The translations under genes were made by a program, and so were the position numbers. Positions 17,422 to 24,082 of a stretch of DNA of 43,134 bases are shown here, piece after piece. Below the pieces are notes generated by a model. The model was not told where the DNA came from. It did not search any database and saw only the letters and a program-made list of their open reading frames with translations. The stretch lies in NCBI GenBank assembly GCA_051648945.1, contig JBOFGC010000083.1, positions 1 to 43,134 on the forward strand. The letters are read 5' to 3'. The DNA comes from Bacilli bacterium. Its GTDB lineage: Bacteria; Bacillota; Bacilli; JBOFGC01. How positions within the stretch are numbered: position 1 is the first letter of the stretch; the number at the start of each line of letters is the position of its first letter.

Positions 17422-17619
17422 ATGATACGTATTAGTTATGATCGTTATGATGAGATTCGCAATCGTTTAGGTGTTATTGAACGTAAATCGTACGTTTCTG
17501 AACAGGAAGAGATTTGGACACTGGTATCAAATGGACAATTCATCGCGGAAGCGATGATAACATCAACAACTGAAAATTTCTACTACTGGCCTGACCGCGA
17601 TCAAGGAAGCAACGAATGA
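17422..17619 (+). CDS. hypothetical protein, 65 aa
   Basis: ATG at 17422 with RBS GAAGG. Its ATGA overlaps the next gene. Confidence 0.5.
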   Translation: MIRISYDRYDEIRNRLGVIERKSYVSEQEEIWTLVSNGQFIAEAMITSTTENFYYWPDRDQGSNE

Positions 17620-18578
17620 AAACTGTTTTTAAGGGAGTCCATGGCTCCCATCTTTATGGACTGAATACACCAGAATCCGATATGGATTACAAGAGCGTGT
17701 TTATTCCTCCGATGCGCGACTTACTTCGTGGTAATGTTAAGTCTACCATCGAAAAGTCTACATCTGACAAGTTCCATAAAAATGACGTTGACGACGTTGA
17801 TAATACTTGGATCAGTCTGCGTAAGTTTTTGCACTTAGCGTGCGAAGGCGAAACGTTTGTTCTGGATATGTTGCATACTACACCAGAACACACTATACAA
17901 AGCTCTCCAGTGTGGGAATACATTCAACGCAATCGCTCTATGTTTTACTCTACCGACATGAGCGCTTACATGGGCTATGTTATGAAGCAGGCCAGTAAGT
18001 ATGGCGTGAAAGGTTCTCGTTTGGCTGCACTGCGTCAAGTTGTTGATGTTTTGTCTTCGTTGCCAGACGAAGCGTTCGAAATGCGCATGTTGCATATCAC
18101 TCATCTGTTGCCTAAGAACGAATTTTGTTACTGGGAGAACAGCGAGAAAGACAACATGACTTATTACCTGTTAATGGGTCGTAAGTACATGCAGACCATC
18201 AAGGTCAAAGAGTTCAGCACCGCTGTTGAGAAGCTGTGGAACGAATACGGCGAGCGTGCCCGCAAAGCTGAAGCCAACGAAGGCATCGACTGGAAAGCTC
18301 TATCGCATGCTATGCGCGGTGGCTATCAGCTACAAGAAATCTTTAAAACTGGTGACCTGGTGTATCCACTGAAAGACCGCGAAACGATCTTGAAAGTGAA
18401 ATTGGGTCAGTTACCATTCAAAGACGTGCAGGAACTGTTGAACGACGTGGTTAACGACGTTGAAAGTCTGATTGCTGTCGCCAAGCGTAATGGATTCCAA
18501 TCTACTCCAGATCTTGAATTCTGGGATAAGTTCTGTGATGACGTTTATTCTGATGAAATGCGAAATTTCTTAAAATAA
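17616..18578 (+). CDS. Pol-beta superfamily nucleotidyltransferase (RlaP / PF10127-like)
   Basis: 320 aa. N-terminal GVHGSHLYGLNTPESDMDYKSVF fits the G[SG]-x9-13-[DE]xD nucleotidyltransferase signature of that family (memory). Confidence 0.7.
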   Translation: MKTVFKGVHGSHLYGLNTPESDMDYKSVFIPPMRDLLRGNVKSTIEKSTSDKFHKNDVDDVDNTWISLRKFLHLACEGETFVLDMLHTTPEHTIQSSPVWEYIQRNRSMFYSTDMSAYMGYVMKQASKYGVKGSRLAALRQVVDVLSSLPDEAFEMRMLHITHLLPKNEFCYWENSEKDNMTYYLLMGRKYMQTIKVKEFSTAVEKLWNEYGERARKAEANEGIDWKALSHAMRGGYQLQEIFKTGDLVYPLKDRETILKVKLGQLPFKDVQELLNDVVNDVESLIAVAKRNGFQSTPDLEFWDKFCDDVYSDEMRNFLK

Positions 18579-18647
18579 AGCTTGCATATAAACGGGGTTA
18601 TGATAATATGACCCCATCGAAACGAAAGGACATTTGAGGATAATAAA

Positions 18648-19154
18648 ATGAAAACACGCAATGGTTTTGTAAGTAACAGCTCTAGCTCTTCTTTCATCGT
18701 CCACTTTCCACGTAAGCCTGAAAGTCGACAAGAACTGGCTGAAATGATGGGTGAGTGCTGCACGACTACCGATTACGGCAACGCTGGCTTAACGTCCGAT
18801 GTTGTTGTTGCTCATGTGTGGCAAGAGATGACACGCGAAGTCGAAAACGACACAACAGACGGACTATCTCCCGATACTCGTAAACTGGCTATGTTGTCCG
18901 GCAAAGACAAATGGGATATTGCTTGGGAATTGAACAATGTGTTGTCTACTTTCGACATCGAAGAAACCGACGAAAACGCAGGAAATCTGGCTGCTTTCCT
19001 GATTGATATGTTAGAAGAACAACAACCAGAAGAACACAAAAGCGGATTCACTTTCACTACGACTTATGCCGATGACTGTGGCTATTTCGAGTCTAACATG
19101 GAACATGGTAACATTTTCCGTAATCTGCCTCATCGTCGTATTAACAATCACTAA
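18648..19154 (+). CDS. MKTRNGFVSNSSSSSF-family paralog A, 168 aa
   Basis: Invariant N-terminal module, then an acidic body. RBS GAGGATAA. Confidence 0.8.
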   Translation: MKTRNGFVSNSSSSSFIVHFPRKPESRQELAEMMGECCTTTDYGNAGLTSDVVVAHVWQEMTREVENDTTDGLSPDTRKLAMLSGKDKWDIAWELNNVLSTFDIEETDENAGNLAAFLIDMLEEQQPEEHKSGFTFTTTYADDCGYFESNMEHGNIFRNLPHRRINNH

Positions 19155-19162
19155 GGTGCAGC

Positions 19163-19567
19163 ATGAACTACACTGTTAAATTGATGAAATCCCTAATTGA
19201 TGCTATGGATCTACTAGGATTTGAGCCAGCAAATGGTGCGTGTGGATACCGCGGGTTCAAAACTAAAAAAGAACGAGCGCACGGATTCCAGTTTGTGAAT
19301 TTCGAGGATGCGTGTTATGCTCTAGCAAATATAGACAGCGTTCGAGTTCGTAACTGGTTTAGTCATGTATTTCGTTATCGATTGAACGAACACGACCAAG
19401 AGCGCATCGTGAACTGTTTCGAATATGGCAATATTCGACAAATACTACGACTGCAACTGAACCGACGTAAGTCCGGTGATCGGTTTATCTGGGTAAATAC
19501 ATGGGAAGGTAAATCTCACAAGATTGAACTTTCTGACTTAGAAACAGTAATAAAGGAAATCAAATGA
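19163..19567 (+). CDS. hypothetical protein, 134 aa (not a family member)
   Basis: Its stop overlaps the ATG of paralog B (ATGA). Confidence 0.65.
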   Translation: MNYTVKLMKSLIDAMDLLGFEPANGACGYRGFKTKKERAHGFQFVNFEDACYALANIDSVRVRNWFSHVFRYRLNEHDQERIVNCFEYGNIRQILRLQLNRRKSGDRFIWVNTWEGKSHKIELSDLETVIKEIK

Positions 19568-20013
19568 AAACACGTAATGGATTTGTAAGTAACAGCTCTA
19601 GCTCTAGTTTTATTATCGGCGTCGCTCTGTTGACTAAAGAGCAACATGACGAAGTTGTGGATAAGTTCGGCAACGGTACAGAATTTATGTCTCTAGTCGA
19701 ATTGTGTTCAGCTAACCGACATGTATGGGGCGGCCCTCGATATGACGAATCTCGTGACCAGTCGTACATCGAAGCGTTTGATGGCAATCAAGTTCAAGTT
19801 GACGGCATTAAAGCGTTCATGGAAGATAATCCTGACGGATACCTGATGTATCTAGACGCAACGGGTGACGAGCCTGATTTCGACGATGATTCATGGGAAT
19901 ATAACTACGAAGATATTGATATCGACTGGTTCAATACCAAAGATCAAGAAGCGGCAGCATATATTCACGAAGCGAATGGCGAATACACATACGGTGGTGG
20001 CTACAATGGTTAA
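19564..20013 (+). CDS. MKTRNGFVSNSSSSSF-family paralog B, 149 aa
   Basis: Invariant N-terminal module. Very acidic C-terminus (DEPDFDDDSWEYNYEDIDIDW). Confidence 0.8.
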   Translation: MKTRNGFVSNSSSSSFIIGVALLTKEQHDEVVDKFGNGTEFMSLVELCSANRHVWGGPRYDESRDQSYIEAFDGNQVQVDGIKAFMEDNPDGYLMYLDATGDEPDFDDDSWEYNYEDIDIDWFNTKDQEAAAYIHEANGEYTYGGGYNG

Positions 20014-20320
20014 TGAAATCCAAGAAGCGTTTGCAAAATATGCACTAGCACGTGAAAACCTCGGCAAGTTATTCGAAACGGAAATCGACTATGACGTTAT
20101 CGACCTAACCAATGAAAAGTGGCTAGAAGCTGATTGCGAATATGTTAAGTACGGCTTAATTGGCAAAGATACGTTCGGCGATTCGGAGTTCGATTACTCG
20201 TTTGAGATATACGGTAGCTCTCGGTGGCAGTCTCATGGTTACGTGTTATTTGTTGGCTACGACTGGTCTGGAAATCGTGGTATGTGTATGTTCGATCTAG
20301 CGAATCGCTTGACTAATTGA
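20006..20320 (+). CDS. hypothetical protein, 104 aa (not a family member)
   Basis: ATG at 20006 overlaps the end of B (ATGGTTAA). The upstream part of ORF-track 19865-20320 is an out-of-frame overlap with B. Confidence 0.55.
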   Translation: MVNEIQEAFAKYALARENLGKLFETEIDYDVIDLTNEKWLEADCEYVKYGLIGKDTFGDSEFDYSFEIYGSSRWQSHGYVLFVGYDWSGNRGMCMFDLANRLTN

Positions 20321-20362
20321 TTGTATGCTGCGCTTTCGGGCGCAGCATTTGAGGATAAAGAA

Positions 20363-20725
20363 ATGAAAACACGTAATGGATTTGTAAGTAATAGCTCTAG
20401 CTCTAGTTTTATTATCGCAGTTGCCAAAGACGATCCTCGCATCGATGCGCTCGAAGTCGCAATCGAGAAAGACCAGAATGAGGAAGGCTACGGCGAAACA
20501 GACTTCGACGAGATTCACACTAAGAGTGGTCTGAAACATTACATTCGCCGAAACTGGTGCATTGATGACGACAAACAAGAAACTTCTCCAGGTCATATGG
20601 ATAAGTTTGAATCGTTGGACGAAGGAAAAATTTTGCTGACGGTTGATGTTGATTATAACCATCGCGGCACATTCGATTTTATCATGACCAATTTCACATC
20701 CGAAGAAATTCTAGACCGGGACTAA
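20363..20725 (+). CDS. MKTRNGFVSNSSSSSF-family paralog C, 120 aa
   Basis: True start at 20363 (RBS GAGGATAA, as in A). A 9-bp hairpin at 20325-20348 lies upstream. Confidence 0.8.
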   Translation: MKTRNGFVSNSSSSSFIIAVAKDDPRIDALEVAIEKDQNEEGYGETDFDEIHTKSGLKHYIRRNWCIDDDKQETSPGHMDKFESLDEGKILLTVDVDYNHRGTFDFIMTNFTSEEILDRD

Positions 20726-20727
20726 TA

Positions 20728-21111
20728 ATGAAAACACGTAATGGATTTGTAAGTAATAGCTCTAGTTCATCTTTTATCGTTGCACTGCAAGAAGAACCTA
20801 AGTTGACAATAGGCGATACCTCGATTCCTATTTCGAAATTGGTGTCTACCCGCGTGTTGAATGCATCGGGTTCCGTTGACGATTTTGTTGATGAGATGAA
20901 TGGTGAATTTTGTTGCATTGAGCCAGAAAATGGCGAATCTTTGTTGGATGCGGTTGCGGTAGACATCCCATGGATAAAGGATGCTGTTGAGTTGCACAAT
21001 AAAGGATACAAGATCATTCGGTTTGACATCGATTACAGCGACGAAACCGGGTCTAGTCTGGTCAATCTTATCATCAAACATAGTAAAGGTGTGGAGCTGA
21101 GTTCGTACTGA
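20728..21111 (+). CDS. MKTRNGFVSNSSSSSF-family paralog D, 127 aa
   Basis: Starts 2 nt after the stop of C. Confidence 0.8.
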   Translation: MKTRNGFVSNSSSSSFIVALQEEPKLTIGDTSIPISKLVSTRVLNASGSVDDFVDEMNGEFCCIEPENGESLLDAVAVDIPWIKDAVELHNKGYKIIRFDIDYSDETGSSLVNLIIKHSKGVELSSY

Positions 21112-21341
21112 TGGATACTTTCGTTCAATTAGCTATTATGTTGACGGGCGTAGTTGCTGTGTTTCTGACACAGCAATCAAATCCTAAACTAAAGAAATAT
21201 GCTTGCATATTTGGTCTTATTGCTCAACCGTTCTGGCTTTATGCGACATATACAGCAGGACAATGGGGAATATTCTGTATGACTTTTCTATACACGTATT
21301 CCTGGGCTACTGGCGTTTATAATAACTGGATCAAGAAATGA
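21111..21341 (+). CDS. small membrane protein, 76 aa, three predicted TM helices
   Basis: MDTFVQLAIMLTGVVAVFL…FGLIAQPFWLYATY…WGIFCMTFLYTYSWATGVYNNW. ATGA overlaps on both sides. Confidence 0.7.
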   Translation: MDTFVQLAIMLTGVVAVFLTQQSNPKLKKYACIFGLIAQPFWLYATYTAGQWGIFCMTFLYTYSWATGVYNNWIKK

Positions 21342-21709
21342 AAACGCGTAATGGTTTTGTGAGTAACAGCTCTAGTTCTAGCTTTATTGTAGCGTTTAAT
21401 CGTGACGACGAGGCAGCCGAGGATGAGTTTCTAGATAAGGCACGAGGCCTAGATTATCATCTTAGGATTTGTCGTATGAAAGGAATGCAGCCATTCGACG
21501 GTAAAGGTCCTCATAGTGACTATCGAGATCATACTTACGGAACTTATTCTAACTCCACTCTGGAATCTGTTTATAAACTGAACGAACTGGGTTATAATGT
21601 TATTGAGATTGAGACATATAACCCGTATAAAGAATTATGGGACATGCTCGTAACGAGTGAGCATCGTTTCAACGCTATATTAACTAAGGAATTAAATGAA
21701 AACACGTAA
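21338..21709 (+). CDS. MKTRNGFVSNSSSSSF-family paralog E, 123 aa
   Basis: Its last 5 codons and stop are read from the conserved module of paralog F in another frame. Confidence 0.8.
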   Translation: MKTRNGFVSNSSSSSFIVAFNRDDEAAEDEFLDKARGLDYHLRICRMKGMQPFDGKGPHSDYRDHTYGTYSNSTLESVYKLNELGYNVIEIETYNPYKELWDMLVTSEHRFNAILTKELNENT

Positions 21710-22061
21710 TGGTTTTGTAAGTAACAGCTCTAGTTCATCTTTTATTATCTGCGGTCTGAATCTATGTCGAGAAGATATAATCAAAGCTTACGACATAGCC
21801 GGAGCTGAACTGACAGAAGAAGATAAAACGACAATCCTGGAAGAGAGTGTATGGGAATGGCCAGACTTCCCAGGACCAATCGAAGCAGCCGAATACGAAT
21901 ACACTGGCACTTGGTTAGGCGTAGCAGTTGACCCTACCTGTCTTTCTGTTAATTCCTGTCTGAGTGGGTTTGTTGGCGAAGGCGCTCACGCACTGATGCA
22001 GAAAATCGGCGAAGAGTTAGGAGAGAAAATCAAAACCTACGGCGACACTGAATACTGTTAA
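21696..22061 (+). CDS. MKTRNGFVSNSSSSSF-family paralog F, 121 aa
   Basis: Invariant module. Followed by a terminator. Confidence 0.8.
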   Translation: MKTRNGFVSNSSSSSFIICGLNLCREDIIKAYDIAGAELTEEDKTTILEESVWEWPDFPGPIEAAEYEYTGTWLGVAVDPTCLSVNSCLSGFVGEGAHALMQKIGEELGEKIKTYGDTEYC

Positions 22062-22069
22062 ATTTGAAA

Positions 22070-22090
22070 GGAGCCTTCGGGCTCCTTTTT
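22070..22090 (+). terminator. intrinsic terminator, GGAGCC-TTCG-GGCTCC copy
   Basis: Exact hairpin plus T5. Closes the paralog array. Confidence 0.85.
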
Positions 22091-22853: not shown

Positions 22854-22882
22854 TTGACACTATAATCTAACGGAGTTAATAT
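22854..22882 (+). promoter_or_regulatory. promoter (TTGACA-N17-TAATAT)
   Basis: -10 lies in the loop of GGAGTT (22872-22877) / AGCTCC (22883-22888). Confidence 0.5.
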
Positions 22883-22921: not shown

Positions 22922-24082
22922 ATGTCTAAGACTGTCGAATTTGCTCGTATGATCGAAGTTCCTGTTGGCAAAATGGTCGAAACTAAATCTGTGAAAATGT
23001 TTCGTTCAGATGAAGCAAATTTCAACTTCAATAAAGTGAACGGATTTACGCAGATGTGGGGTAAAACCAAAGACGACGATGTTGAAGTTTGGCCTTTCCC
23101 AAATATCCTCGACATCGAGATCACCACTGTGTGTAATGGTCCAGACAACAAGTTATGCTCATTCTGTTATAAAGGAAATAATCCTAATGGCTACAATATG
23201 CCTTTCGAGCATTTCAAAACGATCATTGATAAAATGCCATGGCTCCAGCAAACGGCACTGGGCGCAGATGCTCAAGGCGTAACCAATCCTGATATGTTCA
23301 AGATGATGGAGTACGCTCGTCAAAAAGGTATCGTGCCTAACTTGACAATCGCTGATGTCTCAGAAGAAGTAGCAGATAAGCTGGCTAAAGTCGCAGGAGC
23401 AGTGGCCGTTAGCGTATATAAGCATGCTGGATATGACGTTGCTTTCGACTCAATCGCTCGTCTGATTGAAGCTGGTAAGCGCCACGAGCGTGAGTCGTTC
23501 GCTATCAATATTCACTATATGATTTCTTCTCGTACAATCGAGGGTGCATATAAAGTGATTGACGCATATCTGAACGACCCTCGACTGAAAGGAATGGGAG
23601 CGGTGGTCTTTTTGGGCTTGAAGGCGAAAGGACGTGGTAAGAAATTCGATACCGTAACACGCGAACAATATAAAGCGCTAGTCGACTACTGCTTGGAACA
23701 TGAAGTACGCTTTGGGTTCGATAGCTGTTCTGGTCCTGCTTTTATCGATTCAGTTAAAGGTCACGAGAAATTCGAACAGTTCGCAGAAGCGACTGAGCCA
23801 TGTGAAAGTCTGTGCCTCAGTAGCTACATAAATGAATACGGTCAGTTCTTCCCTTGCTCATTTACGGAAGGCGAAGGTAACTGGAAAGAAGGAATTAACG
23901 TACTCGAATCTGAGGATTTCGTAACTGATGTGTGGAATCATCCACGATCCCTTGAGTTTCGCAATATGTTGATTGGAAACAAAGACGAAAATGGTTGCCG
24001 AAATTGTCCTGTCCACATTGTCTGCGATCGCGATATGCGACAGGGTTCATTTAAGCCTGCGCAAATCGGTGATATTCTGTAA
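22922..24082 (+). CDS. radical SAM enzyme with SPASM/twitch-like C-terminal Cys cluster
   Basis: 386 aa. The N-terminal cluster is non-canonical: TTVCNGPDNKLCSFCYKG (Cx7Cx2C). The C-terminus has CESLCLSSYINEYGQFFPC (Cx12Gx4C) and CRNCPVHIVC (Cx2Cx5C). Confidence 0.75.
   Translation: MSKTVEFARMIEVPVGKMVETKSVKMFRSDEANFNFNKVNGFTQMWGKTKDDDVEVWPFPNILDIEITTVCNGPDNKLCSFCYKGNNPNGYNMPFEHFKTIIDKMPWLQQTALGADAQGVTNPDMFKMMEYARQKGIVPNLTIADVSEEVADKLAKVAGAVAVSVYKHAGYDVAFDSIARLIEAGKRHERESFAINIHYMISSRTIEGAYKVIDAYLNDPRLKGMGAVVFLGLKAKGRGKKFDTVTREQYKALVDYCLEHEVRFGFDSCSGPAFIDSVKGHEKFEQFAEATEPCESLCLSSYINEYGQFFPCSFTEGEGNWKEGINVLESEDFVTDVWNHPRSLEFRNMLIGNKDENGCRNCPVHIVCDRDMRQGSFKPAQIGDIL

Follow-up and report, generated by a model that had tools for sequence, protein, structure and literature searches.

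In gene clusters for peptides that are made on ribosomes and modified after translation (RiPPs), a gene for a radical S-adenosylmethionine (SAM) enzyme of the SPASM type can stand beside several hypervariable products that have a conserved N-terminus in common, so that one maturase serves many clients. This multi-precursor logic is best known from the prochlorosins, and SPASM maturases are familiar from subtilosin, SCIFF, streptide and PQQ. SPASM radical SAM enzymes also act on full-size proteins: in Ser-type sulfatases, the anaerobic sulfatase-maturating enzymes anSME and AtsB modify one serine of a short conserved motif that lies near the N-terminus, which yields a functional group derived from the protein itself. 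In phage T4, the internal proteins IPI, IPII and IPIII carry a short common N-terminal peptide, the capsid-targeting sequence (CTS), on variable cargo. Here we analyse a stretch of DNA of 43,134 nucleotides (contig JBOFGC010000083.1 of assembly GCA_051648945.1), hereafter the window, in which six genes on the + strand, between positions 18648 and 22061, encode proteins with an identical N-terminal sequence (the module) and unrelated remainders (the bodies). They are followed on the same strand, at 22922..24082, by the gene of a radical SAM enzyme whose C-terminal domain is of the SPASM/twitch type.

Like the RiPP clusters, this locus and its relatives combine a SPASM-type radical SAM gene with several hypervariable products with a conserved N-terminus, one enzyme with many potential clients, and genes that are closely spaced on one strand. 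However, RiPP precursors are short peptides, whereas the module proteins are 100–280 amino acids (aa) long, predicted to be folded and mostly acidic. The module also differs from RiPP leaders in being only ~16–18 residues long, near-invariant across thousands of proteins, and extended from Met1 into what is predicted to be the first core strand. Unlike RiPP clusters, the module loci have no detected RiPP recognition element (RRE), protease or exporter, and the system is almost confined to large phages. The likeness to anSME lies in a SPASM enzyme and a serine motif near the N-terminus of full-size proteins, but the module lacks the (C/S)-x-(P/A)-x-R motif, the clients are not sulfatases, and the enzyme family has no specific anSME match in NCBIfam, Pfam or PDB. 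A literature search found no description of the module family or of its system with the enzyme. One of the six module proteins (paralog A) and the enzyme are held in PHROG 7397 and PHROG 7293, respectively, both as "unknown function", and PHROG does not link the two.

Conserved linkage of the module genes to one enzyme family

The genetic linkage of the module family to the enzyme is conserved. Among the 78 non-redundant module loci, 50 have a homologue of the enzyme (38–60% identity), in every case on the strand of the module genes, and the median gap is 445 bp. When loci are anchored on the enzyme, 13 of 14 carry module genes within 10 kb, and in the exception the enzyme lies at the very end of its contig. 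On a contig of 522 kb, for example, an enzyme with 43% identity to that of the window (E=4e-96) has the nearest module gene ~280 bp downstream of it and a homologue of paralog A 840 bp downstream. Each locus has one enzyme gene, as against 1–13 module genes, and all-against-all clustering of the 4,119 open reading frames (ORFs) in the loci revealed no other family shared across them. In the phage collection, the protein of the paralog A type occurs in 175 records and the enzyme in 173, with an identical genus breakdown and several accessions in common. In the locus closest to that of the window (L003), where the enzyme is 60% identical, the A body alone is held in common with the window.

Among the proposals of the initial annotation was that the module serves the SPASM radical SAM enzyme close by as a recognition leader, and this strong and independent two-way neighbourhood evidence (50/78 and 13/14) supports it. 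"Leader" may be the wrong word, though, because the module's second half is predicted to form the first core strand and no co-encoded protease is conserved. Most loci that lack the enzyme are cut contigs or belong to phages of the RB16/Slopekvirus type. In arrays without the enzyme, a search for another radical SAM gene found none, and an IMPDH/GMP-reductase-like neighbour alone recurs. Such an ORF lies in or beside ~10 arrays, some of them without a radical SAM gene (5674–6801 in locus L050, 7477–8415 in L053, 7587–8663 in L020 and 2359–3309 in L032).

The enzyme of the window (22922..24082, + strand) is 386 aa long and matches PHROG 7293 over its full length (E=2.8e-168). Within its family, the Pfam model Radical_SAM (PF04055) is matched by 24 of 33 members, and a conserved N-terminal extension of ~55 aa precedes the enzyme core. 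The cluster motif of the window copy is CX7CX2C, with C71, C79 and C82 at conserved positions. It replaces CX3CX2C by an insertion that is common to the closest relative, that of L003, and other members range from CX3 to ~CX17 before CX2C. The conserved auxiliary Cys are C269, C294, C312 and C362, and the auxiliary domain, with about four conserved Cys, could be a full SPASM or a twitch domain. A PDB profile search with the enzyme family gave weak matches to SkfB, BtrN, GDGT-MAS and SuiB, and the window enzyme searched against PDB as a single sequence found nothing. A sigma-70-like promoter match (TTGACA-17-TAATAT, a match to the consensus only) lies just upstream of the gene, at 22854..22882 on the + strand. 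In pseudotevenvirus and Slopekvirus genomes (e.g. Cronobacter phage leB and Klebsiella phages VAC66, Squirrel and Kiwi), the radical SAM gene often has genes for homing endonucleases (GIY-YIG, AP2) at its flanks, and in some of them it is split into two pieces. For the marine T4-like environmental genome TARA_ERS488813_N000010, 12 genes of the radical SAM superfamily have been reported (PMC5332604).

The module family, its bodies and their predicted folds

In the window, residues 1–17 are MKTRNGFVSNSSSSSFI in all six + strand ORFs, which are present just as initially annotated, with starts at 18648, 19564, 20363, 20728, 21338 and 21696. A back-translated pattern of the first eight codons matches six sites in the window, which are exactly these ORF starts, against 0.00 expected from 100 shuffles. 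The consensus of the wider family is MK-x-R-x-G-F-V-S-N-S-S-S-S-S-F-(I/V)-(I/V). A profile search brought up 145 proteins of 104–280 aa from metagenomes, all starting MK-x-R-x-GFVSNSSSSSF, and an exhaustive search with a hidden Markov model (HMM) of the first 31 residues returned 15,986 representative proteins at E up to 0.001, a count of 50%-identity clusters whose weaker part may hold some serine-rich false positives. Nearly all of the 150 matches listed from the HMM search have the module at residue 1. In IMG/VR, 590 stretches match FVSNSSSS, and 185,579 bacterial and archaeal species genomes hold just 135 matching stretches, 11 of them confirmed. Since matches in prokaryotic genomes are few, and all 11 confirmed ones are contigs of metagenome-assembled genomes or likely phage contamination, the module family is essentially a phage family, mostly of large phages.

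Family members are 92–213 aa long (5th–95th percentile), with a median isoelectric point (pI) of 4.8 and 79% of members below 5.5. As a rule their genes form tandem arrays, and the loci hold between one and 13 copies, always on one strand, as in L054, with 13 copies in 6 kb, or L036, with 12. Rare variants of the module are specific to single genomes: all three copies have D6 in L046, all three have S6-L7 in L091, and all three have S or A at position 6 in L058. If the copies of one genome have a partner in common, the same rare variant is to be expected in all of them, and the alignments thus fit co-evolution with a single partner, or else concerted evolution. Six metagenome proteins (P0122, P0123, P0124, P0128, P0139 and P0151) hold two complete modules each, the internal one preceded by Met or Val, and result either from the in-frame fusion of neighbouring genes of an array or from missed or recoded stop codons. 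A contig of 178,077 bp in a bacterial isolate assembly (NZ_JBHSCL010000010.1, "Flagellimonas marina"; locus L073) has both the length and the two-module layout of RB16-like phages, and probably represents phage contamination or a co-cultured phage.

That the bodies are unrelated to each other, as was first noted for the window, is borne out across the family. The 291 unique family proteins of the fetched loci fall into 110 body clusters, and when the 14 largest of these were compared with hhalign after removal of the module, the top probability was 9%, which is not significant. BLASTP among the six window bodies reached E=0.06 at best, and none of 104 body representatives passed the gathering threshold of a Pfam model. 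A weak strand-like motif near the C-terminus, which had been described as a second shared feature, is not demonstrable, as profile–profile comparison of the bodies gives no common region. Single subfamilies do keep an invariant Asp after a late strand, namely D142 in proteins with the body of paralog A (A-type) and G101-D102 in those with the body of paralog B (B-type). The module likewise has no counterpart among characterised families, in agreement with the first reading of the sequence: searches with the six proteins found nothing in Pfam, NCBIfam and PADLOC and only "unknown function" in PHROG, and sequence and profile searches of PDB with family proteins gave no match.

Two AlphaFold2 (AF2) models were built, one for the A-type from 53 sequences and one for the B-type from 12. 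The A-type model (predicted local distance difference test, pLDDT, 79.5) is mostly helical with three strands. The B-type model (pLDDT 84, predicted template modelling score 0.76) is an alpha/beta structure with seven strands, in which residues 1–11 score below 50 and residues 12–23 form a strand. In both of these independent models, residues 1–11/12 are low-confidence or disordered and the first strand starts from residue 12–13, such that the module's second half is expected to provide the proteins with their first core beta-strand. Foldseek found no match with E < 0.1 for the two models in PDB or for the A-type model in BFVD; the B-type model gave weak ferredoxin-like matches only, with probability ≤0.2. 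The UniRef name of the RB16p111-like A-type protein of L073 refers to an Api92/YubB ferredoxin-like domain, an assignment that we did not reproduce: there was no PDB profile match, and no such Pfam match at E up to 10 with seven members or up to 5 with 53 members. Metallophosphoesterase, PP-loop, HAD, phosphate loops of the flavodoxin type, a glycyl-radical motif, pyruvoyl self-processing, a signal peptide or type III secretion signal, and a ClpX N-degron were also considered and dropped, as their motifs do not match.

Substrates, ligands, adaptors or leaders

Gene neighbourhoods and alignments support a functional unit made up of one radical SAM/SPASM enzyme and many module-bearing proteins. 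We favour, with moderate confidence, an arrangement of one enzyme and many clients in which the N-terminal module would be the recognition site and probably also the site of modification. The co-encoded enzyme (22922–24082) would recognise otherwise unrelated small acidic proteins through the module, of which the flexible first 11–12 residues would be offered to the enzyme and the S-S-S-F-I-V end would make up the first beta-strand of each body. The modification would fall within the invariant V-S-N-S-S...F stretch, and the N-terminal module peptide MKTRNGFVSNSSSSSFIVAF would be a candidate substrate. As SPASM enzymes act mostly on peptides or proteins and the module is the only sequence that these proteins have in common, binding and probable modification of the N-terminus is the most economical proposal, and the module is most likely not just bound but also modified. 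The SPASM family offers serine oxidation (as in anSME), C–C or ether cross-links and epimerisation as candidate chemistries. That the module proteins are substrates, that the modification lies within the module, and what its chemistry and biological role may be, are all points that we infer. The acidity, hypervariability and rapid turnover of the bodies, together with their early-type location, lead us to guess at a role as early-expressed host-takeover or anti-defence cargo.

More tentatively, and short of calling it probable, we propose that this is a dedicated protein-tagging system of large phages, in which a portable, invariant 16-residue tag with a serine run, modified by the enzyme, is carried by dozens of unrelated, small and fast-evolving acidic proteins per genome. 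The product could be a cross-link, a serine that has been oxidised or epimerised, or a cofactor derived from the protein. If true, this would amount to a new radical SAM chemistry on a serine-rich motif and a new way in which phages equip effector or anti-defence proteins. Its confirmation would extend the logic of leader plus maturase to whole folded proteins in viruses, and open a way into a large, hypervariable group of proteins that are probably early effectors of phages; the short invariant tag might also be of use in protein engineering. Up to ~16,000 representative clusters (50% identity) of phage proteins without Pfam, NCBIfam or functional PHROG annotation are concerned, and through their conserved link with a single radical SAM/SPASM family these "hypothetical proteins" become testable as an enzyme–substrate system.

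Several observations weigh against the module proteins being clients of the enzyme. Linkage shows shared function, not a substrate relationship, and it is not universal: in the RB16/RB43/Slopekvirus clade the module genes and the enzyme are ~20 kb apart in the same genome, and the full-length loci L050, L053, L079 and L080 hold 5–11 module genes with no enzyme within 10 kb. Neither a PqqD/RRE match in the enzyme, in Pfam or NCBIfam, nor a conserved protease or transporter near the module loci was found, and the absent protease in particular is a point against a processed leader. The window copy of the enzyme, with its atypical CX7CX2C motif, falls below the Pfam and NCBIfam cut-offs (SPASM E=0.002). 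In addition, because twitch-type relatives such as BtrN act on small molecules, the enzyme could make a ligand instead of modifying proteins.

This last point leads to an alternative that we regard as unlikely, in which the enzyme makes or alters a small molecule and the Ser/Asn-rich N-terminal loop, mounted on many scaffolds, binds or acts on that molecule. Linkage would then reflect a common pathway and not an enzyme–substrate pair. The twitch enzymes BtrN and MoaA do act on small molecules; the roughly four conserved Cys of the auxiliary domain are twitch-like, and BtrN is among the PDB profile matches of the family. A possible pocket is suggested by the invariant Asp after a late strand in several subfamilies and by their conserved C-terminal Gly/His motifs, and a core strand is predicted for the module's second half. 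However, it is hard to explain why more than 100 unrelated scaffolds, with no detectable common fold or profile similarity, should keep one identical 16-residue loop, the first 11 residues of which are disordered in both AF2 models. The SPASM model (PF13186), typical of peptide and protein maturases, is moreover matched by 22 of the 33 members of the enzyme family. The related suggestion in the initial annotation, that the module is a catalytic or phosphate-binding loop of one diversified fold, finds no support for much the same reasons: hhalign probabilities between bodies do not exceed 9%, the two predicted folds differ, and residues 1–11 are disordered in the models.

The enzyme may also be the anchor of an F-box-like system, in which the unmodified module docks the enzyme or another conserved partner and the bodies recruit host targets. 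Extremely diverse bodies with fast turnover on a frozen handle would be expected of such adaptors, and both the genome-specific variants of the handle and the presence of one enzyme for many module genes are consistent with them. Many of the bodies are very small for this task, however (90–130 aa), and we know of no precedent for radical SAM enzymes with exchangeable adaptor proteins. The data do not separate adaptors from substrates, and overall we consider adaptors quite unlikely.

Much less can be said for a capsid-targeting or injection leader of the T4 kind, which had been put forward at the outset together with an exchange of cassettes mediated by homology in the leader. In its favour, the module starts MKT..., like the CTS of T4 internal proteins, the bodies are acidic and hypervariable, and the module DNA within this phage is similar enough for recombination. 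But no consistent (L/I)xE protease site follows the module: (L/I)-x-E triplets occur within 30 residues in some copies only (LAE in paralog A, LQE in D and LTE in F), at positions that are not conserved, and cleavage would destroy the fold, because the residues right after the module belong to the predicted core strand. Nor does the array have a late-gene context. It lies in an nrd/early-type region, its conserved neighbour is a radical SAM enzyme in place of head genes, and the T4 late-promoter motif TATAAATA occurs 0 times on either strand of the 43-kb window against 3.3 expected, either because the whole window is early/middle or because this phage uses another late motif. The module is also, to our knowledge, far more conserved than any known CTS, and altogether we judge this explanation highly improbable.

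Module DNA, phage context and gene order

The initial annotation had stressed that the first ~50 nt of the six genes are nearly invariant while the rest has diverged, and had offered two explanations, a nucleotide-level constraint and gene conversion or recombination anchored on the module. The contrast itself is confirmed. Pairs of module copies in the window differ at 1–9 of the first 51 nt, with a single difference between paralogs B and C, and the boundary of this similarity is sharp, because the next 60 nt (37–49 differences) and the 30 nt upstream (13–24 differences) are about as unlike as unrelated sequence. The two explanations fare differently. We examined the codons of 228 non-redundant module copies from 60 loci, collected with a pattern that fixes M1, K2, R4, G6, F7, S9, N10, S11–13 and S15; with a relaxed pattern, exceptions to these residues are rare. 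Every synonymous position of the module varies among the 228 copies, with both the AGY and TCN codons of serine and both the AGA and CGN codons of arginine in use, which refutes a nucleotide-level constraint for the family. Selection on the module acts at the protein level.

Codon identity, taken as the mean over ten invariant degenerate positions, is 0.40 between loci and 0.48 within loci, and reaches 0.72 in the window, where codon usage would lead one to expect ~0.33. An element at the level of DNA or RNA (a recombination site or a translational operator) or recent duplication can draw on this high value and on the 1/51 nt between paralogs B and C, but is scarcely credible as the main cause of module conservation, given an invariant peptide with free variation at every synonymous position across 60 loci, the lower codon identity between and typically within loci, and the age of paralogs A and B, whose bodies have separate orthologs in distant phages (RB16p111 and RB16p106-type proteins, respectively). 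It does survive as a local overlay. Since A and B are old and yet near-identical in module DNA, the best explanation of this near-identity in the window is gene conversion or recombination within the locus, and not a nucleotide-level function, so that the second of the two early explanations is supported here. Gene conversion among module copies would permit the shuffling of bodies.

The window is from a divergent T4-like phage. The array lies between an nrdC.11-like gene and genes for NAD salvage and nrdD, and the surroundings also include nrdA/B. The nrdC.11-type nucleotidyltransferase just upstream (17616–18578) has its best match, with 57% identity, in an Escherichia phage, and is 55% identical to its counterparts in Aeromonas T4-like phages. 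Megablast of the locus against 50,697 phage records gave no match, and hence no close relative for a comparison of breakpoints; NrdD is ~61% identical to that of KVP40-like phages.

Paralog A (18648..19154, + strand, as are all six; 168 aa) carries the A-type body and ends in ...MEHGNIFRNLPHRRINNH. Of the six, it alone gives a full-length match to PHROG 7397 (E=2.5e-26, residues 1–166), the matches of paralogs B–F being confined to residues 1–18 up to 1–46 and due to the module. Orthologs of paralog A with 30–37% identity are found in many phages, RB16p111 among them. Paralog B (19564..20013, 149 aa) carries the B-type body, ends in ...YGGGYNG and has orthologs with 34–37% identity over the body; the body cluster that holds the RB16p106-type proteins also contains similar proteins that end in ...GGGYDG. 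Paralog C (20363..20725, 120 aa), the one with module DNA closest to that of B, has a body with a single weak match, to a CxxC-type member (E=0.002). For paralogs D (20728..21111, 127 aa), E (21338..21709, 123 aa) and F (21696..22061, 121 aa), no relative of the body was found among 388 family bodies compared. All six bodies are acidic, with a pI of 4.05–4.87.

The three small unrelated ORFs that had been described between the paralogs are present. The first (19163–19567) lies between paralogs A and B, the second (~20021–20320) belongs to phrog_29981, and the third (21111–21341) encodes a small membrane protein of 76 aa that belongs to phrog_22312 and has weaker similarity to PnuC-like transporters. 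The second had been listed as a GTG-initiated ORF (19865–20320, 151 aa), and as its match to phrog_29981 begins only at residue 54, the true start is probably the ATG near 20021, giving a protein of ~99 aa. The overlaps between neighbouring genes reported at first were also seen, with ATGA at the starts of paralogs B and E, where E overlaps the stop of the upstream membrane ORF, and a 14-nt overlap of the end of paralog E (21709) with the start of F (21696). A strong terminator-like hairpin with a 10-bp stem and a T run marks the end of the array (22066..22089, + strand). On the − strand, ORFs antisense to the modules (18545–18763, 19560–19787, 20257–20442, 20694–21029 and 21692–21784) all contain ...ELELLLT(N/K)PLRVF...; they mirror the module and are not genes in their own right.

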